64,000 nt of DNA from Candidatus Hodarchaeota archaeon (GTDB lineage: Archaea > Asgardarchaeota > Lokiarchaeia > Sigyniarchaeales > SOKP01), in assembly GCA_048886685.1 (NCBI GenBank), contig JBHLKM010000011.1:15115-79114 (forward strand). Reading direction: 5' to 3'. Position 1 is the first letter of the stretch. Every line of letters begins with the position of its first letter. Made by a program: the position numbers and the translations under genes. Of the stretch, positions 32,310 to 63,461 are shown piece by piece. The notes under the pieces are model-generated. The model saw nothing but the letters and a program-made list of their open reading frames with translations. It searched no databases and was not told the origin of the DNA.

Positions 32310-32312
32310 AAA

Positions 32313-32319
32313 GGAGGAG
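32313..32319 (+). promoter_or_regulatory. Shine-Dalgarno site upstream of aclA
   Basis: GGAGGAG 8 nt before the ATG at 32328. Confidence 0.6.
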
Positions 32320-32327
32320 ATATCAAA

Positions 32328-34163: not shown

Positions 34164-34247
34164 TAATTTTTAAATTCAATTTTTTTATAATCAAAAATTA
34201 ATAAAAAAAGAAATTTTAAAAAAACCAAATATTTGGAGGAAATTTAA

Positions 34248-35438
34248 ATGACTGATATAGTTGAAAACGCAGTAAAACATTTTGAGACTCTTGTTAAAGA
34301 GCAATTAGAACGAGTCGAGAGAATGAAAAAGGCTGCAGATTGGACAGACTATTCCAAATTAAAACCGATTATTATTGGAATTGTTGGAGGGGATGGAATT
34401 GGACCATACATTACGAAACATGCTCATAAGATTTTAGATTTTTTACTTAAAGATGAAGTAGATAGTGGGGCTGTAGAATTTAGAGTTATTGAAGGATTGA
34501 CTATTGAAAATCGAGCAAAAGTAATGAAGGCTATTCCTGATGATGTTCTAGAGGAAATAAAGAGATGTCATGTCTTATTAAAGGGTCCAACTACTACACC
34601 ACGGAAAGGCGATAAATGGCCAAATATCGAAAGTGCTAATGTAACAATGAGACGTGAGTTAGATTTATTCGCCAATGTACGCCCTGTGAAAGTTCCAGAA
34701 TTAGGAATAGATTGGATGTTCTTCAGAGAAAATACTGAAGGTGCTTATGTATTAGGATCAAAAGGAATTAACATTTCTGATGATTTATCCATTGATTTCA
34801 AAGTGATAACAAAACAAGGTTCAGATAGAATTATTCGTCTAGCGTTTGATTACGCAGCTAAAAACAATATAAACCGTGTATCTGTAGTAACAAAAGCAAA
34901 TGTCGTAAAAGCTACAGATGGTAGATTTCTCGCCATGGCAGAAGAAATCGCTAAAGAATATCCCCAAGTAAAATGGGATGATTGGTATATAGATATCGCT
35001 ACTGCAAAACTCGTTGATCCTGCACGTCAAAAAGATTTTAAAGTATTTGTTGCCCCTAATCTTTATGGAGACATCATAACTGATGAAGCCGCTCAACTTC
35101 AAGGAGGAGTTGGAACAGCAGGGAGTGCAAATATAGGGAAAGAATATTCAATGTTTGAAGCTATTCATGGCTCAGCTCCTCGAATGATTGAGGAAGGAAG
35201 AGCTCAATACGCTGATCCTTCAAGTATCATAAAAGCTGCAGCACTACTTTTAAACCATATAGGATTTGTGGATAAAGCAAAACAACTTGAAATGGCTCTT
35301 GATATATGTGCAACTTATGAGAAGAAATTAAAAATGACTGGAAGAGATACCGGTGCTACAGGTGAAGAATTCGCAAAATATATTTTGGATACCCTACAAG
35401 ACCCAAACCTTGAAGAAAAATGGAATAAATATCAATAA
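34248..35438 (+). CDS. icd: Isocitrate dehydrogenase (isocitrate/isopropylmalate family)
   Basis: GDGIGP, KGPTTTP, ESANVTMRR, RENTEG, NLYGDIITD and EAIHGSAP; directly follows aclBA. Confidence 0.82.
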   Translation: MTDIVENAVKHFETLVKEQLERVERMKKAADWTDYSKLKPIIIGIVGGDGIGPYITKHAHKILDFLLKDEVDSGAVEFRVIEGLTIENRAKVMKAIPDDVLEEIKRCHVLLKGPTTTPRKGDKWPNIESANVTMRRELDLFANVRPVKVPELGIDWMFFRENTEGAYVLGSKGINISDDLSIDFKVITKQGSDRIIRLAFDYAAKNNINRVSVVTKANVVKATDGRFLAMAEEIAKEYPQVKWDDWYIDIATAKLVDPARQKDFKVFVAPNLYGDIITDEAAQLQGGVGTAGSANIGKEYSMFEAIHGSAPRMIEEGRAQYADPSSIIKAAALLLNHIGFVDKAKQLEMALDICATYEKKLKMTGRDTGATGEEFAKYILDTLQDPNLEEKWNKYQ

Positions 35439-36415: not shown

Positions 36416-36838
36416 CTATACAATAGGATCGATTATTTCAAGATTTGGAATTTTTTTAAATATATTATCATGGGTACATATCTTCATGATTTGATTCATT
36501 TCTAGAAATGAAAGGATTGTTGCATCTCTTCCTCCTATTCCAGTGTGAGAGTATTTACACAATGTTGAGAAAATGAGATCTAGATCTTCGAATTCTAAAT
36601 TTCCAACAATAAAATCTATTGATGAAAATAATTCCCATTTCTCTTTAGCTATTTCTGATCCCAATCTTTTGACTAAATAATGCATTACTTCCATCAATAC
36701 AAGTGTATTAACTGCTAAGAGGCCTTCATCATATAGATTATTGAAATGCTTTTTAACCAATTCGTGTTCAACTGTGGTTTTATCAAATAAATAGATCCAA
36801 TAGTTAGAATCCACAAAAATTATTGGTTTTTGGTCCAT
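36416..36838 (-). CDS. vapC: VapC/PIN domain toxin
   Basis: FVDSN, LMEV, GRDATI and THD acidic PIN motifs; overlaps the antitoxin gene. Confidence 0.88.
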   Translation of the reverse strand: MDQKPIIFVDSNYWIYLFDKTTVEHELVKKHFNNLYDEGLLAVNTLVLMEVMHYLVKRLGSEIAKEKWELFSSIDFIVGNLEFEDLDLIFSTLCKYSHTGIGGRDATILSFLEMNQIMKICTHDNIFKKIPNLEIIDPIV

Positions 36839-37062
36839 ATGCTTTTAATCATCTCTGGTGTTAGTTTTTCTTCTAATGGAGTTGTTATGCATCCCACAAG
36901 TTTATCGAATATTTCTTCTTTTGAGGGGCTTTTCTTAATATTAATTGAATTATCCGGATTAACCTTAATAGTTAACTTATCACCTGGCTGTATTAGTAAT
37001 TTTTCACGTATTTTTGAAGGCAATGTTAAACGACCACGTTCATCAATTTCAACCTTTCCCAT
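36820..37062 (-). CDS. vapB: AbrB/MazE-family antitoxin
   Basis: MGKVEIDERGRLTLPSKIREKLLIQPGD; the start is probably 37062 or 37074 rather than 37134. Confidence 0.88.
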   Translation of the reverse strand: MGKVEIDERGRLTLPSKIREKLLIQPGDKLTIKVNPDNSINIKKSPSKEEIFDKLVGCITTPLEEKLTPEMIKSIWTKNQ

Positions 37063-37211
37063 ATAATCGCCCATAATATTTATATCTGTACGAAATGTAA
37101 GTCTGCAATGTGTGGGTTGTTTTTCCCTTTTCAACCAATAACTATTAGTACAAATCCCAAATTAATTATTATATAATACTATAAAGAACACTTTAAGAAT
37201 GGTTTTTATCA

Positions 37212-38552
37212 ATGAAGAAAAAGAGAGTAATTATAATTGGTGCTCTTGGAATGGATTTTCATGTTTTTAATACTGTTTTCAGGGATAATGAAGAATATGA
37301 CGTAGTGGCTTTTACTATTGCGGGAGAGCAAAACATTGGTACTACTGAAGAAGCTGAACGAAGATTTCCGGCTAAATTAGCAGGGAAATTATATCCAAAT
37401 GGAATTCCGATGGTATCAGAAGATTTACTCGAAGATTTAATTAAAAAACATAACGTTGATGAGGTTGTTTTCGCGTATTCAGATGTTTCTCATGAAGAAG
37501 TTATGCATAAAGCTTCCAGAGCCCTTGCTGCAGGAGCAAATTATCGATTAATTTCTGGAAGATTCACTCAATTAAAAGCGAATAAACCTGTAGTTGCTAT
37601 ATGTGCAGTAAGAACAGGTTGTGGCAAGAGTCAAGTTTCTCGAGCTACATATCGATATTTAAAGAGTAAAGGATACAAAGTTGTAGCTATTCGCGAGCCA
37701 ATGCCTTATGGTAATTTAATTCAACAAAATGTCATGCGATTCGAAAAATATGAAGATTTAGATAAATACGATTGCACCATTGAAGAGCGTGAAGAATATG
37801 AACCTTATATAAGACAAGGATTAGTAATTTATTCTGGAGTTGACTATGAAAAAATAATAAGAGAAGCAGAAAAAGAATCGGATGTTATTATTTTTGATGG
37901 GGGAAATAATGAGATTTCTTTCTATCTTACGGATTTACTATTCGTTGTTGTCGATCCTTTAAGACCAGGACACGAAAACAAATATCATCCAGGAGAAGTA
38001 AATGCTAAATATGCTGATGTTTTTGTAATTAACAAGATGAATAGTGCGAAACAAGAAGATGTTAAAATTGTGGAAAAAAATCTTGATGAATTAAACCCAA
38101 ATGCTATAAAAGTTTATACTAATTCGTTAGTTAAAGCAGAAGATCCATTAAGATTAAAGGGGAAAAAAGTTGTAGTTGTAGAAGATGGTCCTACTTTAAC
38201 TCATGGAGGGATGTCGATTGGCGCTGCATATGTTGCTGCTAAAAATGCAGAAGCAAAAATAATAGATCCTAGAAAATTTTTGGTGGGATCCATGAAGGAT
38301 GTTTTCGAAGATTTCCCTCAAATAACACAGATTGTACCTGCTATGGGTTACACTGACCAACAAATAGAAGATTTAGAGAAAACACTTAATAATGTGAAAG
38401 CAGATATAATCTTGAATGGAAGTCCTATAGATTTAAACAAATTAGTCAAGGTAAATAAACCAATTGTAAAAGTATCATATGATATCGAATCAATAGGAAG
38501 TCCTACGATTGAAGAATTGCTTGATGATTTTATTAATAAATTCTTAGAATAA
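37212..38552 (+). CDS. arcE: Arginine synthetase (ArcE) family P-loop NTPase, often annotated as GTPase or cDPG synthetase-like
   Basis: FAYSDVSH, AVRTGCGKS, PMPYG, TIEEREEYEP, DGGNN, VEDGPTLTHGGM and PAMGY; clustered with arcB and arcC with no deiminase. Confidence 0.8.
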   Translation: MKKKRVIIIGALGMDFHVFNTVFRDNEEYDVVAFTIAGEQNIGTTEEAERRFPAKLAGKLYPNGIPMVSEDLLEDLIKKHNVDEVVFAYSDVSHEEVMHKASRALAAGANYRLISGRFTQLKANKPVVAICAVRTGCGKSQVSRATYRYLKSKGYKVVAIREPMPYGNLIQQNVMRFEKYEDLDKYDCTIEEREEYEPYIRQGLVIYSGVDYEKIIREAEKESDVIIFDGGNNEISFYLTDLLFVVVDPLRPGHENKYHPGEVNAKYADVFVINKMNSAKQEDVKIVEKNLDELNPNAIKVYTNSLVKAEDPLRLKGKKVVVVEDGPTLTHGGMSIGAAYVAAKNAEAKIIDPRKFLVGSMKDVFEDFPQITQIVPAMGYTDQQIEDLEKTLNNVKADIILNGSPIDLNKLVKVNKPIVKVSYDIESIGSPTIEELLDDFINKFLE

Positions 38553-38589
38553 TAGTAATTTTTGTTGGTTTATAAGCTGATTAATTTTT

Positions 38590-39093
38590 TTAGCCAGTCG
38601 TTATTTTGTAATGAATGTAAAAAACAAGCCCTATACAAAATACACCAAGATCCATTAATATAGCTCCAAATAATGTACTATACACACCAAGTCCTATGTT
38701 TACAGCATCATCAAAGAGAAGTGGCGTTCCTATAGAATTAGAGTACACGGCAGTCATTGGCCATCCAATGAAGTCTAAAATCCAATGACTAAAAACGAGA
38801 AATCCGATAATTATACTAATTTGATAGACTTCTGCATTCCACATTGATGAATTATTTTTATTTTCTTGGTTTTTTTTTGAATTGAGACGCATTTTAATAA
38901 GTGCCGTTATAATTATCGCTATTATTGACCAAAAAATGCTCATAAACAGCCCATGTGTAATCCATATTGCGAATAAAAATATAAAAGATAATAGATCAAT
39001 AAACATAACACTTATTAACAAAATCCAGAGGGAAACTTGAGGAGTGAAACGCTTTGCTGCTAATCCTATTCCAAAATGAGCTAAAGCAGGCAT
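38590..39093 (-). CDS. Membrane-bound metal-dependent hydrolase-like protein
   Basis: H near the N-terminus, then ID, THG and SHWILD motifs across 4-5 TM segments. Confidence 0.7.
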   Translation of the reverse strand: MPALAHFGIGLAAKRFTPQVSLWILLISVMFIDLLSFIFLFAIWITHGLFMSIFWSIIAIIITALIKMRLNSKKNQENKNNSSMWNAEVYQISIIIGFLVFSHWILDFIGWPMTAVYSNSIGTPLLFDDAVNIGLGVYSTLFGAILMDLGVFCIGLVFYIHYKITTG

Positions 39094-39225
39094 GTGATTT
39101 GAAAGGTTAAAATTATTTATAAAAATTATCTATTCTAAAATTTATTTGAATAATATTTAATTCAAAAGTCTCATTAAATCATCCATAATCTAAAATTTTG
39201 TTTTTAATTTAATAATTAGAACTGA

Positions 39226-41421
39226 ATGGAGCAAAATTCTATGATTTTGGCAGAAAAAAAATATGAAATCTACGAAGTTCAGAAGGGTTATGCTAATAGA
39301 ACCCTGTATATTAATCTTTCTAACAATGAGATTACGATTAAACCTGTTTCTGATGAAATGAAAGATAAATTCATTGGTGGAAAAGGTTTTGATTTGTGGC
39401 TTATGTGGAATTCTCTTCCAAAAGATGGTATAATTAAATGGAATGATCCTGAAAATGAGATTTGCATTTCTTCTGGTCCCTTAGGAGGGAGTATATTTTA
39501 TCCTGGATCAGGGAAGTCACTTGTGACCACAATATCACCATTGACAGGTATTATTGTGGATTCTAATGTTGGAGGTTATTTTGGACCATATCTTAAATTT
39601 TCTGGATTTGATGCATTAGAAATTCAAGGAAAAGCCCAAAAGGATGTTATTATTTATATTGATGGAATGGAAGGATTAGTTCAAATTAATGAAGTTAAAG
39701 ATTCCGATGGTTTCTCAGAATATTCTCATGAACTTACTCAACAATTAACTGAAAAATATGCAAAAGAAGACTCTGAGAAGCGACAGATCTCAGTAGTGAG
39801 CTCTGGTCCTGCCGCCAAGCATTCAAAATGGGGGATGCTTAACTTTTCGTGGTATACAACAACCCGTAAACATGCTTCTGTTAAACAAGCTGGCCGAGGG
39901 GGAATAGGGACCGTGTTTAATTATAAGAATATAAGAGCCCTCGTTTGTCGGGCACCTAAAGTAACAATAAAATCAAATAATCCAGCGGATTTAGATGCTG
40001 CTCGAGAATTAGGAAAAGTTCATAGCAAGGAAATTGTAGATATTGATCCAACTCAAAATGAGATGAGAAGAGTTGGGACGGGTTATTTACCAGATATAAT
40101 GAATGTTGTCGATCTATTACCTGTAGAAAACTTTCGATTTGGATCTCATAAAGAAATCAAAGATAAAAACATACCATTTAATCGTGAGGAGATGCGTACA
40201 GTTTACCATGTTAGAGAAGGAGCAGATGGGTGTTGGATAGGATGTACAATGTCCTGTTCACATTATACTCTTGGGCATAAAGTCATGACTGGCCCATTTA
40301 AAGGTCAAGAAGTAATTGTTGAAGGTCCTGAATATGAAACTATAGCGGGATGTGGTTCAAATTGGGGTGTTTGGGATATTAAATGGGTACTTGAAGTTAA
40401 CTTTTATTGCGACACGTATGGGTTGGATACAATCTCAACTGGTACAGGAATTGGATTTGTAATGGAATGTTATGAAGAAGGAATATTAAACAAAGAAATT
40501 ACAGGAGGACTTGAACTTAATTTTGGAAACGCCGAAGCTGCTTTAGAATTAATTCATCAGATGGCACGTGGGGAAGATTTTGGAGTTGTGGTAGGGCAAG
40601 GAATAAGAGAAATGAAGAAAATTTTTGCTGAGAAATATGGTGGAGACCCTCAATTTCTTCAAGATATAGGAATGGAACACAAGGGTTTGGAATTCTCAGA
40701 ATATATAACAAAAGAATCTCTTGCACAGCAAGGAGGATACGGATTAGCACTTAAAGGCCCTCAACATGATGAAGCATGGCTGATTTTCGAAGATATGGTA
40801 AGAAATACACTTCCTACATTTGAAGATAAAGCAAAGGCTTTACGTTGGTTTCCTTATTGGCGGACATGGTTCGGTTTGAATGGTCTCTGTAAACTACCCT
40901 GGAACGACGCTATCGGACCCCAAAATAAAGATTTGCCAGTAAAAGATCCAGAAACAGGTGAACTACTTCAAGCAAGAATACCATATCATGTTGAGTGGTA
41001 TGCAAAGTTTTTCTTTGCAGTTACTGGAAGGCAATCTACTCCAGGTGATCTTATTAAAATGTCTGAACGAGTCTATAACTTCCAAAGAATATTTAATATT
41101 AGATTAGGTCAGGGTTTACGCGAAGGTGATTCTAATTTGCCTTATAGAGCAATGGGACCTGTCTTACCTTTAGAATATGAAAGCAGATTAGAATTATATG
41201 ACTCTCAATTAAAGGATTTAGGATTTAATATTGAAGGAGAAACAACTAAAGAAAAGATTAAAATCCTCCGAAAACATCGTGAAGAACAATATTCAAAACT
41301 TCAAGATGCAGTTTATAAAGAACGTGGTTGGAACCAAAATGGGTGCCCAAGAATAGAAAAAGTCAAAGAGTTGGGAATAGACTACGATGATGTAATATCT
41401 TTAATAAAACCATATCAATAA
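39226..41421 (+). CDS. aor: Tungsten/molybdenum aldehyde:ferredoxin oxidoreductase family
   Basis: FIGGKG, SPLTG, AGRGGIG, CWIGCTMSC, GPEYET, CDTYGLDTIS and GLC motifs. Confidence 0.9.
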   Translation: MEQNSMILAEKKYEIYEVQKGYANRTLYINLSNNEITIKPVSDEMKDKFIGGKGFDLWLMWNSLPKDGIIKWNDPENEICISSGPLGGSIFYPGSGKSLVTTISPLTGIIVDSNVGGYFGPYLKFSGFDALEIQGKAQKDVIIYIDGMEGLVQINEVKDSDGFSEYSHELTQQLTEKYAKEDSEKRQISVVSSGPAAKHSKWGMLNFSWYTTTRKHASVKQAGRGGIGTVFNYKNIRALVCRAPKVTIKSNNPADLDAARELGKVHSKEIVDIDPTQNEMRRVGTGYLPDIMNVVDLLPVENFRFGSHKEIKDKNIPFNREEMRTVYHVREGADGCWIGCTMSCSHYTLGHKVMTGPFKGQEVIVEGPEYETIAGCGSNWGVWDIKWVLEVNFYCDTYGLDTISTGTGIGFVMECYEEGILNKEITGGLELNFGNAEAALELIHQMARGEDFGVVVGQGIREMKKIFAEKYGGDPQFLQDIGMEHKGLEFSEYITKESLAQQGGYGLALKGPQHDEAWLIFEDMVRNTLPTFEDKAKALRWFPYWRTWFGLNGLCKLPWNDAIGPQNKDLPVKDPETGELLQARIPYHVEWYAKFFFAVTGRQSTPGDLIKMSERVYNFQRIFNIRLGQGLREGDSNLPYRAMGPVLPLEYESRLELYDSQLKDLGFNIEGETTKEKIKILRKHREEQYSKLQDAVYKERGWNQNGCPRIEKVKELGIDYDDVISLIKPYQ

Positions 41422-41456
41422 AAATTAAATTACTTAATTACTAATATAGAATCCAA

Positions 41457-43541
41457 ATGGAGAACATAACCTCCCATCCCATATTGAAAATACCTGAAAG
41501 AAAAAAGGTCAACTTTAGTTTTAACGACAAACAGTTATACGGATATAAAGGAATGGTAATCTCTTCAGCACTTTTTCTTAATAAGATCAAAATTTTTGGA
41601 CATCATGTTAAGGATTCAAGCCCTCAAGGAATTTTTTGCGCAAATGGGCAGTGTTCACAGTGTAATGTCATAGCTAATGGGATTCCGGTTAAAGCATGTA
41701 TGACTTCTCTCAGAGAAGGGATGATTATAGAAAGTTGTAATGGATTGCCAGAATTACCTGCTAAAGATGAACCAGTTAAGATAGGGGATCCTGAGATTAT
41801 TGATCTTGAAGTTCTAGTGATTGGTGCTGGCCCCGCAGGGTTATCTGCAACTAAAATCTTAGGAGAATCTAAACTTGAGGTTTTATTAGTCGATGATAAA
41901 GATAGACTTGGAGGTAAGTTAGTTCTTCAAACTCATAAATTTTTTGGTTCTCAAGAGGATGTTTATGCAGGGAAACGCGGTATTGAAATAGCAGAAATTC
42001 TTGGGCAATCCGTACTTTCATTAGAAAATGTTCAAGTTTGGCTTAATAGTGTGTGTTTAGCAGTTTTTAACGATGGGTATGTTGGAATTCTCAAAAATAA
42101 TAAGGAATATGTATTAGTTAAACCAAATTATCTTCTTGTTGCTACAGGGGCACGTGAAAAGATGTTAGTTTTTCCTGGTAATACTTTACCGGGAGTATAT
42201 GGTGCGGGGGCATTTCAAACATTAGTAAATCGTGATTTAATTAGAGCTGCTGAAAAAGTGTTTATTGTTGGAGGAGGAAATGTTGGTTTAATTGCAGGTT
42301 ATCATGCTATTCAGGCAGGAATCGAAGTTATTGGACTAATTGAAGCAATGCCTCAATGCGGGGGGTATAAGGTTCATGAAGATAAGTTAAGACGATTAGG
42401 TGTTCCTATTTTCACAAATCATACAGTAATCTCTGCAAATGGAGATAATAAAGTTGAGTCTATAACTATTGCTCAGATAAATAATGAATTTAAACCCATA
42501 TCTGGAACTGAAAAAACCTTTTCCTGCGATACTATCTTGATAGCAGTTGGTTTAAATCCAGTTGATGAGTTTTACCAAAAGGCAACGGAATATGGTTTAA
42601 AAGTTTGGGTCGCCGGAGATGCCCAAGAAATAGCAGAAGCTTCTGCAGCAATATTCACGGGTAAAATTGAAGCTTTAAAGATATTAAAAGAGATGGGAAT
42701 TAAAACAGAAGAGGATTTAAAAACCCTTCAGGAAATTTCTGAAGTTATGAAGTCAAAACCTCCACCCCCAATTGATGTAGACTTTACATATAAAGAAGAA
42801 GGTATTTTTCCAGTATTCTATTGTAATCAAGAAATACCTTGCAACCCTTGTACCACAGTATGCCCAAATCAACAGATTGAAACAATTGACAATTTAATTA
42901 CTCAATTGCCTTATTTTAAAGATGATCAAGAATGTATAGGATGTGGTAAATGTGTTGCTGTTTGTCCTGGGTTGGCAGTTGTGTTAAAGGATTACAGAAA
43001 GGATAAAAAAAATCCATCCGTAACGTTTCCTCTCGAACTCACCGAAAAAAGGCTTGAAAAAGGTCAAGAAATTGTTGTTACGAGTAATGATCAAGAATTA
43101 GGTCAATTTGAAGTCTATAGAGCAAGGATTCTAAAAGAATTTCCAAAAACTCAATTAATAACTGTTAAATTACCATCAGAAATAGCAAAACAAGCAGTTG
43201 CCATTAAATTATTTAAAAGCATGTATTCTGAGCCTATTGACATCTATCAAAAAGAATTTACTGATGACGCTACGATTGTTTGTAGATGTGAGCGTGTATC
43301 GGTTGGAGAGATACGTAAATGGATTCGTTCAGGTGTAAAGGATTTTAATGAATTAAAAGCTTTAACCAAAGTTGGAATGGGTGCGTGCGGTGGAAAAACT
43401 TGCACTCCTCTAATTAATAAAATATTTCAAGAGGAAGGTATTTCGATTGATGATATTATTCCTGGAACGAAACGCCCATTATTTATTGAAGTGCCGATGG
43501 GAATTTTTGCTAGTGCTAGAGAAAAAAAGGACTTGATATAA
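41457..43541 (+). CDS. Multidomain flavoprotein ([2Fe-2S] + FAD/NAD(P) + 2x[4Fe-4S] + BFD-like), proline/sarcosine dehydrogenase alpha-type
   Basis: CANGQCSQC..C, GAGPAG, ATGARE, GGGNVG, CNPCTTVCP, CIGCGKCVAVCP and CRCE..GMGACGGKTC. Confidence 0.85.
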   Translation: MENITSHPILKIPERKKVNFSFNDKQLYGYKGMVISSALFLNKIKIFGHHVKDSSPQGIFCANGQCSQCNVIANGIPVKACMTSLREGMIIESCNGLPELPAKDEPVKIGDPEIIDLEVLVIGAGPAGLSATKILGESKLEVLLVDDKDRLGGKLVLQTHKFFGSQEDVYAGKRGIEIAEILGQSVLSLENVQVWLNSVCLAVFNDGYVGILKNNKEYVLVKPNYLLVATGAREKMLVFPGNTLPGVYGAGAFQTLVNRDLIRAAEKVFIVGGGNVGLIAGYHAIQAGIEVIGLIEAMPQCGGYKVHEDKLRRLGVPIFTNHTVISANGDNKVESITIAQINNEFKPISGTEKTFSCDTILIAVGLNPVDEFYQKATEYGLKVWVAGDAQEIAEASAAIFTGKIEALKILKEMGIKTEEDLKTLQEISEVMKSKPPPPIDVDFTYKEEGIFPVFYCNQEIPCNPCTTVCPNQQIETIDNLITQLPYFKDDQECIGCGKCVAVCPGLAVVLKDYRKDKKNPSVTFPLELTEKRLEKGQEIVVTSNDQELGQFEVYRARILKEFPKTQLITVKLPSEIAKQAVAIKLFKSMYSEPIDIYQKEFTDDATIVCRCERVSVGEIRKWIRSGVKDFNELKALTKVGMGACGGKTCTPLINKIFQEEGISIDDIIPGTKRPLFIEVPMGIFASAREKKDLI

Positions 43542-43543
43542 CA

Positions 43544-44710
43544 ATGGTTGAATATGATGTAATTATCATAGGGGCTGGCAGCGTTGGTGTACCAACAGCT
43601 TTAGCAGGTGCAAATGATGGCCTTCGAATACTAGTTCTCGATTTATTACCTTCAGTTGCTCAAGGGGATAATAAACACGCAATAGGAGGAATCCGAGCGA
43701 CTCATTCCCACATAGGGAAAGCCTTACTTTGTCAAAGATCGATAGAGATCTTTTCTACATGGGAAGAAAAGTATGGGGATGATATTTGGTGGCATCAAGG
43801 GGGATATACTTTTTTAGCTTTTACGGAAGAAGATGAGAAAATGCTAAAAGATACCGTAAAACTCCAAAAAAAAAATGGTTTAAATATAAATTTTGTTGAT
43901 ACTGAGAAAATTAAAGAAATTATACCAGGGATTAATGATGATGGGTTATTAGGAGGAACATATAGTCCCGAAGATGGGAATGCTTCACCCTTATTATCTT
44001 TACATGCATTTTTTCGCCAGTCAAAAGAATTAGGTGCTGAATATCACTTTAATGAAAAAGTTAATAATATAATTATAAAAAAAGATAAAATTAGGGGAGT
44101 TAAAACAACCAAATCAAAATATAAAACTAATTTTGTTATTAATGCTGCTGGTGCTCATGCTAAACATATAGGTGCCATGGTTGGTGTCAATTTCCCCGTT
44201 GATCCTGAGTCTCATGAAGCAGGTATTACTGAACCTGTTAAAAAATTCTTTTCACCAATGGTGGTTGACGTTCGACCGTTTGTTGATGAAAAATTTGGAG
44301 GTTCTAAAAATTATTACTTTTATCAAAATGATGAAGGAAAGATATTATTTTGTTTGACCCCCAATCCAAACATTTTTGGTATTGACCGTAGAGAAACTAG
44401 CTCGTTTTTACCTCAAATTTCAAAAAGAATGGTTAAGCTTTTGCCTCGTTTAAGGAATTTAAAAATTAGAAGAACATGGCGCGGTTTATACCCAATGACG
44501 GTAGATGGGAATCCAATTGTAGGTAAGATTGATGAGGTAGATGGATATATTAACGCTATTGGAATGTGTGGGCAGGGTTTCATGTTAGGACCTGGTTTAG
44601 GAGAACTTATAGGTCGACTTCTAAATCAAAAATTGAACTCTCAAGACCATGAAATTTTAAAGAGTTTATCCTATAAACGTGAATATTTTAAAGAAGAAGT
44701 ATTAAAATAG
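43544..44710 (+). CDS. FAD-dependent amino-acid oxidoreductase (DAO family), proline dehydrogenase/sarcosine oxidase beta-type
   Basis: IIGAGSVG, NAAG, RTWRGLYPMTVDGNPIVG and GMCGQGFMLGP. Confidence 0.88.
   Translation: MVEYDVIIIGAGSVGVPTALAGANDGLRILVLDLLPSVAQGDNKHAIGGIRATHSHIGKALLCQRSIEIFSTWEEKYGDDIWWHQGGYTFLAFTEEDEKMLKDTVKLQKKNGLNINFVDTEKIKEIIPGINDDGLLGGTYSPEDGNASPLLSLHAFFRQSKELGAEYHFNEKVNNIIIKKDKIRGVKTTKSKYKTNFVINAAGAHAKHIGAMVGVNFPVDPESHEAGITEPVKKFFSPMVVDVRPFVDEKFGGSKNYYFYQNDEGKILFCLTPNPNIFGIDRRETSSFLPQISKRMVKLLPRLRNLKIRRTWRGLYPMTVDGNPIVGKIDEVDGYINAIGMCGQGFMLGPGLGELIGRLLNQKLNSQDHEILKSLSYKREYFKEEVLK
44184..44610 (+). repeat. Direct repeat copy 1 (427 bp)
   Basis: About 25 mismatches (hand count), no indels, versus 45734..46160. 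Confidence 0.95.
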
Positions 44711-45094
44711 ATTAGAAGGATCAGGATCTTGAATTCTACGTAATTTAAGAGATTCAAGAATATTAATAATTTCTTTTTCATTAGATGTTGGGTAAAATTT
44801 CTTCAATATCTTTTTTAAAATCAAATTTATTAGTATAAAAATAAATGTGCTTAATAAACTAGGAATTGTTATAGAAGAAATTATGATTTGAATCAAATCT
44901 TCCCTTGTAACATCTGTTGGTCGATATATAAGAGTATGTGGAAGCGGGGGGTAAAAGAGAATAACTAAAATCGAGAACATACTCATTATGATTAAAGCTA
45001 CTGATAATATTATCCCCCAATAAGATACCCTTTTAGCAATAAAAATAGATTTAAACTTCTTTGTTGAAGTAAAAGTTTGATTTCTATTAGCCAA
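44702..45094 (-). CDS. Two-TM membrane protein
   Basis: Two hydrophobic segments; TTG start. Confidence 0.55.
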   Translation of the reverse strand: MANRNQTFTSTKKFKSIFIAKRVSYWGIILSVALIIMSMFSILVILFYPPLPHTLIYRPTDVTREDLIQIIISSITIPSLLSTFIFILINLILKKILKKFYPTSNEKEIINILESLKLRRIQDPDPSNLF

Positions 45095-45506
45095 TTCTAC
45101 TCACATTCCAACTAATAATATCTGCTTATTAAAATTCATTAGGTAAGATTTGTTTTTATAATTAATGCTTAATTGGTAAGTATTTAATTCATATAATGAT
45201 TAATCCAAATAAGAGAATGGAATTTGGTTCACTAATAAAAAATGGAATAGCTCTCGATAAAACCGGAAAACCAGATTATATGGGAGACCTTATAGTTTCT
45301 ATTCGAAACCAATCTTGGAAGGTATAAAAGATCCTTTTGATTTCTTCTTCGAAGAAAATTATGATTTTGACAGTTTAAGGAGGATCAAACAAGAAATTTT
45401 AGAAAAATATTTAAAATCTTGAATTTATTTGATTCATTAATTATTAACTATAATTTAAGGAATTTAACATTATATATAATTAAAAACACTGAAAATGCGA
45501 TAAATT

Positions 45507-45733
45507 ATGGTTAGACATTTACTTAAAATATCAGATCTTTCGAGGTCAGAATGTGAACTTATTATAAATAAAGCAATAGATATTAAAAAAAGTCCTAACA
45601 AATATTATAAATCTCTCGAGCATGAAACACTTCTAATGTTATTCGAAAAACCATCTTTAAGAACACGTATCTCATTTGAAACTGGAATGCAACAATTAGG
45701 GGGTCATGCTATTTTTTACTCGATTAAAGATTC
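45507..45733 (+). pseudogene. arcB: 5' fragment of ornithine carbamoyltransferase
   Basis: MVRHLLKISD...FEKPSLRTRISFE...FYSIKDS matches the first ~76 aa of 47776..48708, then homology stops. Confidence 0.92.
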
Positions 45734-46260
45734 GTGTCAATTTACCCGTTGATCCTGAGTCTCATGAAGCAGGTATTACAGAACTTGTTAAAAAATTCTT
45801 TTCACCAATGGTAGTTGACATTCGACCGTGTGTTGATGAAAAATTTGGAGATTCTAAAAATTATTACTTTTATCAAAATAAGGAAGGAAAGATATCATTT
45901 TGTTTGACCCCTAATCCAAATATTATTGGTATTGACCGTAGAGAAACTAGCTCATTTTTACCTCAAATTTCAAAAAGAATGGTTAACCTTTTGCCCCGTT
46001 TAAGGAATTTAAAAATTAGAAGAACATGGCGCGGTCTATACCCTATGACGGCAGATGGCAATACAATTCTAGGTAAGATTGATGAGGTAGATGGATATAT
46101 TAACGCTATTGGAATGTGTGGGCAGGGTTTCATGATAGGACCTGGATTAGGAGAACTTTTAAGTCGCCTTTTAACAGAAAAAACATCCAGTAGTGATAGA
46201 GAAATTTTAGATAGTCTTTCATCTACTCGAGATTTTGGTATAATAGAAGAATTAAAATAA
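45734..46260 (+). pseudogene. 3' fragment of the DAO-family oxidoreductase (contains repeat copy 2, 45734..46160)
   Basis: Lacks the N-terminal FAD-binding half; about 94% identical to 44184..44610. Confidence 0.9.
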
Positions 46261-46278
46261 AAATGGCGAATATTTAAA

Positions 46279-46506
46279 ATGAATTTTGATATATTAGTAA
46301 AAAATGGAAAAATTATCGATGGTGCAGGAAATCCCGGATATTGAGCTGATATTGGAATAAAAAACGGCAACATAGTGAAAATTCACCCAAAATTAGATGT
46401 TCATACAGCAAAAGAAGTAATTAATGCTTCAGACATGATTATATGTTCTGGGTTTATTGATATGCATTCCCACACCGATGTTATCGGTGCTTTTATTTCA
46501 GAATGA
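46279..46506 (+). pseudogene. 5' remnant of an N-acyl-D-amino-acid deacylase (amidohydrolase)
   Basis: MNFDILVKNGKIIDGAGNPGY*ADIGIKNG...SGFIDMHSHTD; internal TGA at 46342 and truncation just after HxH. Confidence 0.85.
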
Positions 46507-46609
46507 GTTAAGATTTGCCAATGGTCAGGAGTATCAAAATTAAATTAGCTCGCTGCACAAAAATGTAAATAACTTTTAATATTCAATTTCACTAATAATT
46601 AGGAGAACA

Positions 46610-47680
46610 ATGAGTTTTGAAAATTTATTATTAGGAATTACAACTTTTATTGCAGGTTCATTATCACTAACTAATGGAATACTTACATATGTTTATGCAA
46701 GAAGAAGAAAGAATCGTGTTATATTTTTGTTTTCAGCAAATTGGTTTCTTCAAGCAATATTCTGGTATCTGGATGGTACAGCTCATTTAACTTATACTCC
46801 TTTAATTATGGCAATCTCATTTATCCCACACACTTTAGGGGTGCTATTTCTCTTTACCTATATAGAGCTTATTGAAAAAGAAAATGTAAGTTCTTTAAAA
46901 GTTACATTCTTAGTTATTATTGAATTGTTGTTTGTATCTTTAGCATTTCTTCCAGGTGGAATGGAAGTTATTCCTGATTATGGTGTTCATATCATTGGGC
47001 TCTGTAGAATATTTCAAATTATTTTCCTTATCATCTATGTTTTCTACTATTTTACTTGGAGTTATAAAACATGGAGGAGATCCCCTAATGAATTAAGAAA
47101 AAAAGCATCACTTCTATTATTAGGAAGCGCATTATTTTCTATTGTAACAGTTTTGATGTATGTAGTTGGAACCCTCGTAAAAATATTCAATCCTCTTGGA
47201 TTTGTTGTCCATGGAATTGGAGCTTTGATTACTGTAATAGTAATCTGGCAGGAACCAAAACTCATATACGTATTACGTTTTAAGGCATACAGGCTCATTG
47301 TATTGGAAACAGGTAGCGGTACTGCCCTATATAAACATGATTGGGCAGAATTAAGAAATATTGACGAAAATTTCTTTTCTATGATGCTTCAAGCAATAAG
47401 TAATGTGTTGAATGAGCTTCTTCACAAGGGGGAAGTCCGTGAAGTTCATACAGATCAAGCAGTTCTTCTTATCCAACATAATGTTCAATATCCAATTGCT
47501 TCTGTGTTAGTAGCTTCAAAATCATGCAAATCGTTAAGATATGGTTTAAAGGAATTCAATGAACAATTCGTAACAAAATTTTCTTCAGACATTGAGATTA
47601 GTTACCAAAATGTCAGTAGATTTAATGATGCAATTATCTTAGTTAATAAAATTTTTGATTTTGTACCAGAATATAAATAG
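46610..47680 (+). CDS. Seven-TM protein with C-terminal longin/roadblock-like domain
   Basis: Seven hydrophobic segments in aa 1-215; a soluble C-terminal domain with the same pattern as the TPR protein tail. Confidence 0.72.
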   Translation: MSFENLLLGITTFIAGSLSLTNGILTYVYARRRKNRVIFLFSANWFLQAIFWYLDGTAHLTYTPLIMAISFIPHTLGVLFLFTYIELIEKENVSSLKVTFLVIIELLFVSLAFLPGGMEVIPDYGVHIIGLCRIFQIIFLIIYVFYYFTWSYKTWRRSPNELRKKASLLLLGSALFSIVTVLMYVVGTLVKIFNPLGFVVHGIGALITVIVIWQEPKLIYVLRFKAYRLIVLETGSGTALYKHDWAELRNIDENFFSMMLQAISNVLNELLHKGEVREVHTDQAVLLIQHNVQYPIASVLVASKSCKSLRYGLKEFNEQFVTKFSSDIEISYQNVSRFNDAIILVNKIFDFVPEYK

Positions 47681-47775
47681 TAGATTTTCGGCAGTAATTG
47701 AGTTCTTATTTAATTTATATCTAATCTTTCTTTCTATTATTATAATTATTTCTAATAATTTCAAATTGAATAAAA

Positions 47776-48708
47776 ATGGTAAGGCATCTATTAAAAGTCT
47801 CTGATTTTTCAAAAGAAGAATGTAAAAGAGTTATTAGTAAATCTATTGAAATTAAGAAAAATCCTAAAAAATATGATAAAGAATTAGAAGGAGAAACTCT
47901 TTTAATGCTATTTGAAAAACCTTCACTGAGAACCCGAATTTCTTTTGAAACAGGTATGCAACAATTGGGTGGACATGCTATATTCTATTCAATCAAAGAT
48001 TCCCCTTTGGGTAAAAAAGAAAACATTAGTGATACAGCTAAAGTCGCATCAAGATTTGTCAACATAATAGCTGCTCGTGTCTTTAAAAGGCAAGATATTA
48101 GGGCTCTTGCAAAATATGCCGATGTTCCTGTTATTAACATGCTTGATGATTTTGCGCATCCATGTCAGATTCTTGGGGATTTTCAAACAATCAAAGAAAA
48201 GAAGGGAAGTCTTGATAACTTTAAATTATCCTATTTTGGAGATGCTAATAATAATGTTACCTATGACCTAATGAGGATGTGTGCAATGTTTGGTTTAAGA
48301 ATGGATGTTACTTGCCCTATTAATCCTGAATATTCACCTGAACAAATTGTTATAGATGAAGTATCAGAACTCTCCAAAGATAATGAGGCTGAAATAAAAG
48401 TAGTTCATGATGCACTTGAAGCTGCCAAAGATGCCGATGTGATATATACTGATAGTTGGATGAGTTATGGAATACCAGCAGAGCAAGAAGAAGAGCGAAA
48501 AAAAGCTTTTATGCCCTATCAAGTTACCTCTTCAATTATGCAAGCGGCTAAGCCAAACGCAATTTTTATGAATTGTTTGCCTGCAATGCGAGAATATGAA
48601 CAAACAGCTGATGTTATTGACGGACCACTATCAATTGTATTTGATCAGGCCGAAAATCGTCTACATATACAAAAAGCAATTATGCTCTTTTTACGAGAGA
48701 AATTTTAA
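47776..48708 (+). CDS. arcB: Ornithine carbamoyltransferase
   Basis: SLRT, HPCQ, GDANNNV, DSWMSYG, NCLP and QAENR. Confidence 0.93.
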   Translation: MVRHLLKVSDFSKEECKRVISKSIEIKKNPKKYDKELEGETLLMLFEKPSLRTRISFETGMQQLGGHAIFYSIKDSPLGKKENISDTAKVASRFVNIIAARVFKRQDIRALAKYADVPVINMLDDFAHPCQILGDFQTIKEKKGSLDNFKLSYFGDANNNVTYDLMRMCAMFGLRMDVTCPINPEYSPEQIVIDEVSELSKDNEAEIKVVHDALEAAKDADVIYTDSWMSYGIPAEQEEERKKAFMPYQVTSSIMQAAKPNAIFMNCLPAMREYEQTADVIDGPLSIVFDQAENRLHIQKAIMLFLREKF

Positions 48709-48939
48709 AAAGTCTATCTTATCCACTTATACTTCTTCGTGACGAGATGGTGCGCCGTCTGCAGAACAAGAGAAGTTCCCACCAGGAATGCCTAGTCAAG
48801 ATTTCATAGAATATAGATTTGGAACTATTCCATCTAATTATACTAAAATAGGATTTTTCTGAGAAAAATTTTAAATAATAAGTTAAATATTATCTATTTT
48901 TCCTTTACTTTTGTGTAATTTTATCTAGAGGTTTATTAA

Positions 48940-49854
48940 TTGAAAACATTGATTGTAGCACTGGGCGGGAATGCGCTAATCAAGTTTGGTGATGAAGGGA
49001 CAACAGAAGAACAATTTCGAAACTTACGAGTACCAATTAGTCAAATTGCGAAATTAGCAAAAGAATATAATATAATTATAACTCATGGTAATGGACCACA
49101 AGTAGGCAATCTCTTACTACAACAAGAAGCCACTCAAGCTGTTTCAAAAAGGCCATTACAAATTCTCGTAGCAGAGACGCAAGGTCAGATTGGTTTTATG
49201 ATAGAATCCACTCTAGATGAAGAATTAATGAAAATTGGTCTTGATGAAGAAAAACTCTTTCTTACTGTTCTTACATATGTGAAGGTGGACGCTGAAGACC
49301 CAGCATTTTTGAATCCAACTAAACCTATTGGCCCCGCTTATGATGTTCCAAAACCGGGATATGTGAAAACTGCAAAAGGTTATCGACGTGTAGTTCCATC
49401 GCCTAAACCTATTAAAATTTACCAGTGGCGTGAAATAAAAAAATTAATGGAATTAGGGAGTTGGATTGTAATCGCTTGCGGAGGTGGTGGTATTCCTGTA
49501 ATAAAAGAAAAAAAGAAATTATATGGGGTAGAAGCTGTAATTGATAAAGACCTAGCGAGCGCTAAATTAGCTGAACAAATTAATGCCGACATTTTATTAA
49601 TAGCAACCGATGTTGAAAAAGTTTCTCTTAATTATGGGACCTCAGACCAACAAGAATTAGACAAATTATCAATCTCTGAAGCAAAAAGGTATTTAGAAGA
49701 AAATCAATTCCCAGCAGGAAGTATGGGCCCAAAAATTCAAGCTGTAATAAATTTTTTGGAATCAGGTGGAGAAAAAGCAATAATAACGTCTATTGATAAA
49801 ATAATAGAAGCTTTAGATGGAACAGCGGGAACACACATTCATTCAAGTAATTAA
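48940..49854 (+). CDS. arcC: Carbamate kinase
   Basis: ALGGNAL, HGNGPQVG, PTKPIGP, RRVVPSP, EAVIDKD and GSMGPK. Confidence 0.95.
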   Translation: MKTLIVALGGNALIKFGDEGTTEEQFRNLRVPISQIAKLAKEYNIIITHGNGPQVGNLLLQQEATQAVSKRPLQILVAETQGQIGFMIESTLDEELMKIGLDEEKLFLTVLTYVKVDAEDPAFLNPTKPIGPAYDVPKPGYVKTAKGYRRVVPSPKPIKIYQWREIKKLMELGSWIVIACGGGGIPVIKEKKKLYGVEAVIDKDLASAKLAEQINADILLIATDVEKVSLNYGTSDQQELDKLSISEAKRYLEENQFPAGSMGPKIQAVINFLESGGEKAIITSIDKIIEALDGTAGTHIHSSN

Positions 49855-49901
49855 ATTACACAATAAAATTTTTGAAAATATGAACCTTATAAAGATTTGA
49901 A

Positions 49902-50282
49902 ATGAATGAAATTAAAAATCTTATTGAGGACTTAGGAATTGCGGCATTGGAGGCCAATACAAAAATTGCTAGGATCGCAGTTGTCTCTGATTCAGGAAAT
50001 ATAATTTTCCAGACAGAAAATTTTGATCTAACCAATCAAACAAAAATTATATCTGATGTCATTAAGGGTATCCGCTCTTTTGTTTTTAATAATATAGAAT
50101 TTTCGGTTGATGAAACTAACACTGAAGGAATTATAGGTACAAACGATGGTGGTATGGGGCATCTAATTTTCATTCCTTTTCAAGGAGGTGTGCTTGTAGC
50201 ATATGCCATGCCTAAAGCAGATCCAATGAAAGCATTATTATTTCTAAAAGATTATGCGAGTAAATTGAATGGGAAGATATAA
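49902..50282 (+). CDS. Asgard (Loki-type) profilin homolog
   Basis: 126 aa; IAVVSDSGNIIFQTENF, IGTNDGGMGH and AYAMPKADP match the recalled Loki profilin pattern (QTENW, IGTN..GKGH, Y..P.A.P). Confidence 0.8.
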   Translation: MNEIKNLIEDLGIAALEANTKIARIAVVSDSGNIIFQTENFDLTNQTKIISDVIKGIRSFVFNNIEFSVDETNTEGIIGTNDGGMGHLIFIPFQGGVLVAYAMPKADPMKALLFLKDYASKLNGKI

Positions 50283-50435
50283 TTTAAAATTTAATAAAAT
50301 TAGTAGAATTCAATAATATTCTTTTATTTTTGTTTCTCTCTAACGATAATATATATTGAAAAAATAACGATTATAGTTCCAAATAAATGGAATAAGGTAA
50401 AAACTTCGCCAAGAATTAACCTGGAAAACTGAAAT

Positions 50436-51695
50436 TTACTTGATCAATACTTTTTCAATAATTTCAATAGCCCAATCAATTTCTTCTCGAGTAATTACTA
50501 AGGGGGGGGCAAACCTAATTGTTGTAGAATGAGTATCTTTTGCTAAAATTCCATTGTCTTTTAATTCTTCAACAATTTGTCTTGCATCTTCAGTAAATTC
50601 TACAGCCACAAGTAGTCCTTTACCTCTTACATCTTTGATTGGAATTTTCGTTCTTTTTTCTGCAATTTCCTTAAGTCTCTTAATAAAGTAAGATCCCATC
50701 TCTTTTGATCGCTCAGCAAGATTCTCACGTAAATGAATGTCTATAGATTTCATTGCAACTGCACATGCTAAAGGATTTCCCCCAAATGTGCTTCCATGAG
50801 TTCCAGGTTTAATTACATCTGGTCCTATAATATCTTTAGTTGTAACACATGCAGAAACGGGATAAACGCCACCCCCCAGAGCTTTACCTAATAACAACAT
50901 GTCTGGTTTTACATTTTCATGATCACAGGCAAAAAGTTCACCAGTTCGACAAAAACCAGTTTGAATTTCATCTAACACCATCAAAATATTATATTTAGTA
51001 CAAATATCTCTAACTTTCTTCAAAAATCCTTCTGGAGGGACATTTACACCAGCTTCTCCTTGTATAGGTTCAAATAAAAAAGCAGCTACTTTTTCGGGTC
51101 CAGTTTCTAAAATAATATTCTCCAATTCTTCAGCGTCTCCGTAAGGTATCATAATAAATCCCGGAGTATATGGGCCAAAATTTCCATAATAACGAACTGC
51201 TGAAATATCGGAACTAAAGCCAACAATAGTTATTGTCCTACCATGAAAATTATTTCGACATACAATAATTTTAGCTTCATTTTTAGGGATTTTTTTCTTA
51301 ATATAACCCCAAGCTCTTGCCATTTTTAAACCTGTAGATACTGCTTCTGTTCCAGTGTTCATTGGAATGCTCATTATCCCAGAATTTGTTGGATCGTTGA
51401 TGTGTGGACCTACAACTTCAGCTAGCATTTTTAAAAAAGGTCCCATTAAATCATTATGAAAGGCTCGAGAAGTTAAGGTAACGATATCTGCTTGTTCTTT
51501 TAAAGCTGCGACAATTTCAGGATGACAATGACCAGTATTCTGGCTTGAATATGCTGATAAACAGTCCAAATATTTATTACCTTCTGGATCATACACCCAA
51601 ACTCCTTCTGCTCGGGAAATTACAACGGGAATAGGATGATAATTATGAGCACAATATTTCAAATCCATTTCAATATAATCTTTTGATGTTGGCAT
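50436..51695 (-). CDS. rocD: Ornithine--oxo-acid aminotransferase
   Basis: AHNYHPIP, LSAYS, LTSRAF, FHGRT, EPIQGEAG, DEIQTG, GKALGGG and HGSTFGGNP. Confidence 0.93.
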   Translation of the reverse strand: MPTSKDYIEMDLKYCAHNYHPIPVVISRAEGVWVYDPEGNKYLDCLSAYSSQNTGHCHPEIVAALKEQADIVTLTSRAFHNDLMGPFLKMLAEVVGPHINDPTNSGIMSIPMNTGTEAVSTGLKMARAWGYIKKKIPKNEAKIIVCRNNFHGRTITIVGFSSDISAVRYYGNFGPYTPGFIMIPYGDAEELENIILETGPEKVAAFLFEPIQGEAGVNVPPEGFLKKVRDICTKYNILMVLDEIQTGFCRTGELFACDHENVKPDMLLLGKALGGGVYPVSACVTTKDIIGPDVIKPGTHGSTFGGNPLACAVAMKSIDIHLRENLAERSKEMGSYFIKRLKEIAEKRTKIPIKDVRGKGLLVAVEFTEDARQIVEELKDNGILAKDTHSTTIRFAPPLVITREEIDWAIEIIEKVLIK

Positions 51696-55513: not shown

Positions 55514-55514
55514 T

Positions 55515-57104: not shown

Positions 57105-57139
57105 TTATCTCACTTTTTTTTAATAAAAATTCTAAAAAT

Positions 57140-58174: not shown

Positions 58175-58282
58175 TTTCTCCCCAAAAGAAATATTATACT
58201 CATTAGTAAATGATATAAAACGTAATTATTTAAATTTTGAATATAAATTATCAAATACAATACTAATTATTTGCTATACTAA

Positions 58283-59521: not shown

Positions 59522-59608
59522 AATAATAAATTAAAACTCTAATTCGAATCTTATTAAGATAAAGAATTCATAAACTAAAAATTTTGCTTAAATTGATGAT
59601 TTATATCA

Positions 59609-60652: not shown

Positions 60653-60689
60653 AATAATCCTCCTTTGATAATTTTCTATTTTCTATTTA

Positions 60690-61406: not shown

Positions 61407-61427
61407 TTATATTAATAGGTAATATGA

Positions 61428-62252: not shown

Positions 62253-62264
62253 TATAATTCATAC

Positions 62265-63452: not shown

Positions 63453-63461
63453 AGAATTTTT

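Follow-up and report, generated by a model that had tools for sequence, protein, structure and literature searches.

In Thermococcus kodakarensis, arginine is degraded by the arginine synthetase ArcE (TK2200), the ornithine carbamoyltransferase (OTC) ArcB (TK0871) and the carbamate kinase ArcC (TK2158), and the arginine deiminase gene arcA is absent (Michimori et al. 2024, PMC11032458). The same study reported that TK2200 homologues complement the absence of arcA, that they are often annotated as GTPases, show distant similarity to cyclic 2,3-diphosphoglycerate (cDPG) synthetase and sometimes lie near arcB or arcC, and that their holders include Lokiarchaeota and Virgibacillus. ArcE was described there as reversible, and a biosynthetic role was proposed where carbamoyl phosphate synthetase (CPS), ArcB and ArcE are present but ArgG and ArgH are absent. 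Here, we describe a related gene cluster, extended by further oxidoreductase genes, in a Candidatus Hodarchaeota genome of the Lokiarchaeia. It lies in a 64,000-nucleotide stretch of contig JBHLKM010000011.1 (assembly GCA_048886685.1, positions 15,115 to 79,114 of the forward strand), hereafter called the window, and all positions are counted from the first letter of this stretch unless a relative's locus is named.

The genome under study (G000) is 100% complete, with an estimated contamination of 8.4%. Genes were called from an open reading frame (ORF) listing combined with Pfam and NCBIfam profile searches of the window proteins. For synteny, 60 genomes of the same order were searched with each protein, and 20-kb stretches were then compared. 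These related genomes are not independent, and co-occurrence counts over the 60 genomes are given as a description of the pattern, with no statistical test.

Conservation of the arginine and ornithine genes

A first-pass annotation, made from the sequence alone, had placed an arcE-like gene, a gene of the aldehyde ferredoxin oxidoreductase (AOR) family, an alpha/beta flavoprotein pair, arcB and arcC on the plus strand, with a convergent rocD, and every one of these genes was recovered at its assigned place. It had also noted that arginine deiminase is lacking from the window, and no PF02274 match was found either there or anywhere in the complete genome. The cluster is best read as a conserved Lokiarchaeia-type operon for glutamate-family amino acids that is most likely catabolic and would comprise four steps, a reading that we consider about evenly balanced as a whole.

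Sixteen of the 20 loci compared, from five genera and two families, share the arrangement arcE-AOR-alpha-beta-arcB-arcC together with a convergent rocD. Because this order recurs in relatives at 62-93% protein identity, with values down to 62-77%, the clustering lies far outside what chance would produce. The gaps are often operon-like, for example, 74, 40, 12 and 62 bp in L048. One further locus of the 20 is cut after the AOR gene, and three closed genomes of the second family carry a simpler arcE-arcB-arcC-rocD arrangement on one strand, with the AOR gene (57-59% identical) and the alpha/beta pair (62-66% identical) located elsewhere. Additionally, rocD occupies the same cluster end in 15 of the 20 loci compared first, as well as in L076, L077 and L080, and arcB and arcC share the cluster with arcE in every Asgard locus long enough to show this. 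Variable extras, namely, genes for flavodoxin, VapBC pairs, a TPR protein, an amidohydrolase and a cyclase-family protein, occur in some genomes; VapBC-type pairs are inserted between arcB and arcC in the relatives L047, L050 and L077.

Across the 60 genomes, matches were obtained for ArcE in 34, the alpha subunit in 32, RocD and ArcC in 35 each, and the AOR in 43. Of the 39 genomes with any of ArcE, RocD and ArcC, 32 gave a match for the alpha subunit, compared with none of the 21 genomes without them; the pattern includes genomes in which the alpha gene is not linked to arcE, such as the closed genomes G011, G021 and G031. An AOR orthologue was found in 33 of the 39 genomes with module genes, but also in 10 of the 21 without.

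The arcE product (446 aa; 37212-38552, plus strand) matched no Pfam or NCBIfam family beyond a sub-threshold cobW match, no ArcE structure was found in the PDB, and its assignment is based on homologues, motifs and a tree. The best of 8000 homologues are Asgard proteins (Promethearchaeota, Lokiarchaeota and others) labelled 'GTPase' or 'cDPG synthase'. It matched 412 representative proteins at E < 1e-30 and is 50-57% identical to homologues across many bacterial and archaeal phyla, including one from Virgibacillus (L159, 52%). In about 28 of 80 loci from other lineages, arcC or arcB lies within 10 kb of arcE, mostly directly downstream. The first-pass annotation had named grouping with cDPG synthetases as the outcome that would overturn its assignment; the cDPG synthetase 9sxb gave only 25 bits (E 7e-5), compared with 350-510 bits for ArcE-type representatives. 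Membership of the window protein in the ArcE family, far from cDPG synthetase, is therefore supported at the sequence level, with TK2200 compared by its published description, and the published points on arcE (no arcA, the GTPase label, proximity to arcB and arcC, occurrence in Lokiarchaeota) all fit it. Taken with the absence of arcA, the kept neighbourhood, the location of homologues of more than 50% identity next to arcC or arcB and the marginal cDPG synthetase match, the earlier ArcE/ArcB/ArcC reading stands.

A P-loop (GCGKS) is located at residues 136-140 of ArcE, and its G138 and K139 vary hardly at all among 28 diverse homologues. The majority motifs of the family are GAAGRDFHNFN, RHPMPYG and DGGNND, and the window protein carries GALGMDFHVFN, REPMPYG and DGGNNE (type B). 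All Asgard copies show GALG[MFY]D, REPMPYG and DGGNNE, and type B motifs were also found in copies from Helarchaeota, Undinarchaeota, Nanohalarchaeota and a few bacteria, the Arg of GAAGRD being often lost in this clade. The His-to-Glu (RHPMPYG to REPMPYG) and Asp-to-Glu (DGGNND to DGGNNE) changes always co-vary. In a FastTree phylogeny of a thinned set of 82 sequences, the type B sequences grouped in a single clade (SH-like support 97) that lies inside the majority type. Because both motif types adjoin arcB and arcC, the substrate of type B enzymes is probably the same as that of the majority type.

The other three enzymes scored above curated equivalog cut-offs: ArcB (310 aa; 47776-48708, plus strand) with 361 bits for TIGR00658 (cut-off 281) and 371 for NF001986 (cut-off 306), ArcC (304 aa; 48940-49854, plus strand) with 372.6 bits for TIGR00746 (cut-off 358), and the ornithine--oxo-acid aminotransferase RocD (419 aa; 50436-51695, minus strand) with 526.8 bits for TIGR01885 (cut-off 378). 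By homology to the characterised pathway, it is highly likely that, as a first step, ArcE would convert arginine, ADP and phosphate to citrulline, ammonia and ATP, ArcB would phosphorolyse citrulline to ornithine and carbamoyl phosphate, and ArcC would yield a second ATP. The analogy with T. kodakarensis suggests a gain of two ATP per arginine (PMC11032458). As a second step, RocD would transaminate ornithine to glutamate 5-semialdehyde, which is in equilibrium with 1-pyrroline-5-carboxylate (P5C), and the equivalog-level matches make this assignment likely.

Classical enzymes for these amino acids are missing. ArgG, ArgC/LysY, ArgJ and a PutA-type proline dehydrogenase were not found in the complete genome, and neither was a ProA-type match. 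ProC, an OCD-family gene, the CPS large subunit and several glutamate dehydrogenases are present. The search for P5C dehydrogenase that the first-pass annotation had proposed returned only two generic aldehyde dehydrogenases (Aldedh, PF00171) in the genome, the best P5C dehydrogenase model scoring 313 against a cut-off of 648 and neither protein coming near the ProA cut-off. Because ArgG, ArgC, ArgJ, ProA, PutA and P5C dehydrogenase are missing, arginine, ornithine and proline metabolism is suggested to run through this one operon. Moreover, since all steps are reversible and ArgG, ArgC, ArgJ and ProA are lacking, the module would also supply proline from arginine via RocD and ProC, as in T. 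kodakarensis, and may work in both directions.

The same pattern extends across the order. ProA-type matches (for example, in G006, G009 and G041; L164:3023-4291 and L165:2401-3657) were found in 15 of the 21 module-free genomes versus 1 of the 39 with the module, and short weak PF00171 matches in other genomes proved to be ProA (575 bits; cut-off 289). Since ProA and the module are complementary, the module would replace the ProA route as the source of P5C. Meanwhile, 9 of the 60 genomes lack PF00171; each of these carries the module, and two of them, the closed genomes G011 and G021, encode RocD together with the flavoenzyme and the AOR. Several lineages thus have no aldehyde dehydrogenase to connect the semialdehyde with glutamate. 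The generic aldehyde dehydrogenase encoded on C23 was considered as a hidden P5C dehydrogenase and rejected, as it is absent from the module genera g3, g9, g12 and g16 and present in module-free genera.

The flavoprotein pair and the AOR-family enzyme

The alpha subunit (694 aa; 41457-43541, plus strand) is a fusion containing a 2Fe-2S Fer2_4 domain, an FAD/NAD(P) Pyr_redox_2 domain, a 2x[4Fe-4S] dicluster domain and a BFD-like 2Fe-2S domain, without the folate-binding GCV_T domain of sarcosine oxidase. The gene of the beta subunit (388 aa; 43544-44710, plus strand), a DAO-family FAD protein of the L-proline dehydrogenase type, begins two bases past the end of the alpha gene. Beta matched 1Y56_B (PH1364, catalytic subunit of the L-proline dehydrogenase complex from P. 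horikoshii) at E 1.5e-55 over residues 5-362, with about 38% identity over 350 residues. The next PDB families lie at or above the E value of heterotetrameric sarcosine oxidase beta (5e-24), and plasmid-borne relatives, including rhizobial opine-oxidase-type proteins, reach at most 30.5% identity. The first-pass annotation had assigned the pair to proline; this is favoured by beta, which is closest to PH1364, whereas alpha matches PH1363 (1Y56_A; E 2e-19, over the first ~260 residues only) and sarcosine oxidase alpha (8e-20) equally well. L-proline is the favoured substrate because beta is closer to PH1364 than to sarcosine oxidase beta and opine-oxidase-type relatives. As a third step, this fusion-type relative of the Pyrococcus and Thermococcus L-proline dehydrogenases would oxidise proline to P5C, which is fairly probable given the family resemblance.

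Between arcE and this pair, a long AOR-family tungsten or molybdenum pterin oxidoreductase is encoded (39226-41421, plus strand; 731 aa as annotated), with AFOR_N (E 8e-48) and AFOR_C (E 3e-95) domains. Nine orthologues from the order-wide search, seven of them in the compared loci, carry TGA at codon 3, and their alignments begin at M6. Because of this stop codon, the true start is probably M6 at 39241, five codons later than annotated, which gives about 726 aa. A selenocysteine in this protein was considered and rejected, since the in-frame TGA at codon 3 lies upstream of the real start.

The closest solved relatives of the AOR are P. furiosus AOR (190 bits) and then FOR (162 bits). The alignment with P. 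furiosus AOR retained EGPEYE, the His in GPQHDEAW, DTYGLDTISTG (DxxGxD) and CxxxCxxxC, and the catalytic and cofactor columns, including the Cys in GL(x)GLCKLPWND, are invariant in a six-sequence alignment of the clade. The protein scored below the cut-offs of characterised subfamilies (NF007354, 105 versus 868; GAPOR, 48 versus 1300) and, as judged from its sequence, is in no characterised subfamily among AOR, FOR, GAPOR, WOR5 and BamB. The genome encodes 11 AOR paralogues, of which this one is about 100 residues longer than the other ten. Members of the long-AOR clade at 50-59% identity were found in Heimdallarchaeota, Melioribacter, Treponemataceae and Cloacimonadales, with a mean column identity of 66% between the Asgard, spirochaete and Melioribacter members.

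Outside the arginine cluster, the recognisable neighbours of long AOR genes in 76 metagenome contigs and 4 genomes were ThiF/MoeB-like genes (28 loci), polyferredoxin genes (17), tungstate-type binding protein genes (8) and one DAO-like gene. Among the neighbours of the long AOR that could be named with a small reference set, RocD, ProC, the alpha subunit and ArcE were not found; of the many unnamed neighbours, two frequent ones have no PDB relative. The neighbours of unlinked AOR or flavoenzyme genes in relatives (polyferredoxin, acyl-CoA-synthetase-like, FeoB, EamA, AAA/VWA and Hef helicase) were uninformative. In five relatives (L045, L046 at 5012-5575, L047, L049 and L050), a flavodoxin gene (187-192 aa) lies directly 5' of the AOR gene on the same strand, which makes flavodoxin a possible electron acceptor of the AOR; the cluster in this window has no flavodoxin gene. 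Overall, the context supports a tungsten enzyme with a ferredoxin-type partner. In a Cloacimonadales genome (L174, G063, C1:2625850-2630946), the long-AOR orthologue is split into two ORFs by a co-oriented 626-aa ORF, and an aldehyde dehydrogenase gene and a ThiF-family gene lie just 3' of the split gene.

As a fourth step, the long AOR would oxidise the semialdehyde to glutamate and pass electrons to ferredoxin or flavodoxin, substituting for P5C dehydrogenase. Because no clear P5C dehydrogenase is present and two closed relatives are Aldedh-free, the AOR is the only candidate for the semialdehyde-glutamate link, and assigning it this role would be the simplest way to close the pathway; we infer this step tentatively. 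The first-pass annotation had made the same proposal; the operon position and the missing P5C dehydrogenase speak for it, whereas the orthologues in 10 of 21 module-free relatives and the substrate-neutral neighbourhoods of a bacterial sister clade speak against it. An acid-semialdehyde precedent exists in P. furiosus FOR, for which glutarate semialdehyde was proposed as the true substrate (PMC12096430). A search of the accessible literature retrieved no paper tying AOR enzymes to glutamate semialdehyde or Asgard archaea to arginine synthetase. The broader proposition that these archaea connect glutamate semialdehyde and glutamate by a tungsten-type AOR instead of an NAD-dependent aldehyde dehydrogenase is doubtful. 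If it were true, the AOR, the Fe-S-rich fused proline dehydrogenase and ferredoxin or flavodoxin would together allow arginine, ornithine and proline to be converted to glutamate anaerobically and without quinones. We speculate that low-potential electrons derived from the aldehyde might offset the high-potential ones derived from proline, in a confurcation-like coupling. In reverse, the AOR would take the place of ProA/ProB and, through RocD, OTC and ArcE, supply an arginine synthesis that needs neither ArgBCDJ nor ArgGH.

Alternative substrates and directions

Several observations weigh against the four-step catabolic pathway. The Asgard ArcE belongs to a derived clade with changes at three conserved positions (R14 to M/F/Y, H to E and D to E). 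Proline oxidation would take place in a quinone-free fermenter without an obvious electron acceptor, and the two generic aldehyde dehydrogenases of this genome might themselves oxidise the semialdehyde. The remaining points concern the AOR. Its orthologues in the 10 module-free genomes (63-72% identity) occur in the absence of the flavoenzyme, ArcE, RocD and ArcC; in family f2, it is paired with a polyferredoxin and not linked to arcE; and bacteria carry clade members whose only recognisable neighbours are cofactor, ferredoxin and transporter genes. These AOR observations would fit an arrangement in which the arginine part works as proposed but the AOR does not act on glutamate semialdehyde, P5C being converted to proline only through ProC in a biosynthetic route like that of T. 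kodakarensis. The AOR would then be a general or otherwise specialised aldehyde oxidoreductase whose place in the operon reflects common regulation or a redox partner used jointly. The presence of ProC and the OCD-family gene is consistent with this, as is the complementarity of ProA and the module, which points to proline supply. However, the AOR gene is closely packed between arcE and the flavoenzyme genes in five genera (gaps of 35-90 bp), P5C from a proline dehydrogenase-type enzyme would have no sink except back to proline or ornithine, and closed genomes with the module lack any Aldedh gene. We therefore regard another substrate for the AOR as rather unlikely.

The module could also be mainly anabolic, with the AOR reducing glutamate by means of reduced ferredoxin, or the flavoenzyme oxidising proline, to give the semialdehyde, which RocD, OTC and ArcE would convert through ornithine and citrulline to arginine. 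Carbamoyl phosphate would come from CPS and ArcE would use ATP and ammonia, so that the module would replace the ArgBCDJ/ArgGH and ProAB routes. The set of missing genes (ArgG, ArgC/LysY, ArgJ and ProA), the presence of the CPS large subunit and the complementarity of ProA and the module agree with such a direction, as do the reversibility of ArcE and the biosynthetic role proposed for it where ArgG and ArgH are absent (PMC11032458). Even so, a carbamate kinase gene carried in the operon marks ATP-yielding catabolism when CPS exists elsewhere, reduction of an acid by the AOR demands electrons of very low potential, and a lysine fermentation operon lies next door. Asgard archaea of this kind are peptide and amino-acid fermenters, which also makes a mainly anabolic module improbable. 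Finally, a different secondary amine could be the substrate of the flavoenzyme, for example, an opine, pipecolate, or sarcosine or a further N-methyl amino acid, with the AOR clearing the released aldehyde (2-aminoadipate semialdehyde or formaldehyde). Its family, with the same subunit types, spans sarcosine oxidases, opine dehydrogenases, D-hydroxyproline dehydrogenase and the HCN-forming HCN synthase (PMC4575208), and L-pipecolate is accepted as well by the Pyrococcus alpha4beta4 L-proline dehydrogenase (PMC4141209). Both formaldehyde and C5 semialdehydes are oxidised by FOR-type enzymes, formaldehyde, if formed, would leave the enzyme in free form because alpha has no folate-binding domain, and the lysine operon is adjacent in this genus. 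Nevertheless, beta is far closer to PH1364 than to sarcosine oxidase beta or to plasmid opine-oxidase-like proteins, and the flavoenzyme co-occurs strictly with the arginine and ornithine genes and not with the lysine operon, so that a different amine substrate appears very improbable.

Rearrangement, surroundings and comparison with known systems

A 3-kb scrambled stretch specific to this genome (44711-47775, no assigned strand), which the first-pass annotation had not mentioned, separates the beta gene from arcB. It contains a 5' fragment of arcB (45507-45733, 76-81 codons) fused to a 3' fragment of the beta gene (45731-46260, the last 530 bases or ~176 codons), followed by the relic of an Amidohydro_3 gene with a GFIDMHSH-type N-terminus (about 46274-46506) and an ORF of 356 aa (46610-47680) with about seven predicted transmembrane helices and a soluble tail. 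At the DNA level, the arcB fragment shares 84% identity with arcB of another lineage (L080) versus 74% with the resident arcB, and the beta fragment is 93% identical to the resident beta gene. An intact Amidohydro_3 gene was found between the beta gene and arcB in two relatives (L063 and L077). Neither Pfam nor NCBIfam gave a match for the seven-helix ORF, and comparison with 24 cluster loci of relatives revealed no counterpart. Since the beta gene and arcB are about 60-100 bp apart in most relatives, the insert represents a local accident. It could have originated by recombination with a foreign copy of the cluster, or it could be an assembly chimera, which is possible because of the estimated contamination. 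A further sign of rearrangement was seen in the relative L047 (G051:C7:70280-70591), in which a 116-aa duplicate of the ArcE C-terminus lies just 3' of the intact arcE.

Outside the conserved core, a small hydrophobic ORF (167 aa; 38590-39093, minus strand) between arcE and the AOR gene matched no Pfam or NCBIfam family, and its only counterparts, at 66-70% identity, were seen in three loci of the same genus. Upstream of the cluster, there are metabolic genes for aconitase, succinyl-CoA ligase, ATP-citrate lyase and isocitrate dehydrogenase, and a PIN/MazE-type toxin-antitoxin pair (36416-37134) lies just 5' of arcE. The ATP-citrate lyase and isocitrate dehydrogenase genes (31017-35438) are located directly 5' of arcE, also in L054, L056 and L057 from two further genera; they act at the node of 2-oxoglutarate, which RocD needs. 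Downstream, a penicillin-amidase-family gene is followed by the lysine fermentation operon on the minus strand (54722-63923), which comprises kamE, kamD, kamB, kamA/ablA, kdd, a methyltransferase gene, kce, a family III CoA transferase gene and a class III aminotransferase gene. In several genomes of this genus, the operon adjoins the arginine cluster.

Among prokaryotes, Asgard archaea are most closely related to eukaryotes, and their cultured members live by amino-acid fermentation. Judging from the cluster, many of them may obtain two ATP from each arginine. If the AOR does oxidise glutamate semialdehyde, this would be the first physiological substrate for a large uncharacterised clade of tungsten enzymes, and a gap in metabolic models of Aldedh-free Lokiarchaeia would be closed.

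Compared with the known systems, the ArcE part of the pathway is well supported and was essentially published already, in a lineage listed by PMC11032458. Shared with T. kodakarensis are the three enzyme families, the lack of arcA, the proximity of arcE to arcB and arcC, and the tie between ornithine and proline supply. Unlike there, the genes form one operon with rocD attached and with the AOR and the proline-dehydrogenase-type pair between arcE and arcB, and the Asgard ArcE falls in the derived REPMPYG/DGGNNE clade. The arginine deiminase pathway (arcABC) is similar in its operon layout and in making ATP from citrulline by OTC and carbamate kinase, but here an ArcE-type enzyme takes the place of the deiminase and should add a second ATP. 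The Roc system of Bacillus subtilis (RocD and RocA) follows the same logic from ornithine through glutamate semialdehyde to glutamate, and the RocD found here scores at equivalog level; in this cluster, however, no aldehyde dehydrogenase of the RocA or P5C dehydrogenase type is present, and an AOR-family enzyme is the sole candidate.

The flavoenzyme resembles the dye-linked L-proline dehydrogenases of Pyrococcus and Thermococcus (PDH1, alpha4beta4, 1Y56; PDH2, alpha-beta-gamma-delta) in its beta subunit and in the N-terminal and flavin/NAD parts that alpha shares with PH1363. It differs in that the Asgard alpha is a fusion with 2Fe-2S, 2x[4Fe-4S] and BFD domains and is encoded beside an AOR within an arginine operon; its size presumably corresponds to the delta, alpha and gamma subunits of PDH2 combined. 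Like P. furiosus FOR, the AOR belongs to a family of tungsten enzymes in which an acid semialdehyde is a proposed substrate, but it lies outside the FOR clade, in a separate clade shared with bacteria, and is longer by about 100 residues. The new features relative to all these systems are that genes for an AOR-family enzyme and a fused proline-dehydrogenase-type complex have been inserted, in a conserved manner, into the arginine operon, and that the classical arginine, proline and P5C enzymes have been lost.

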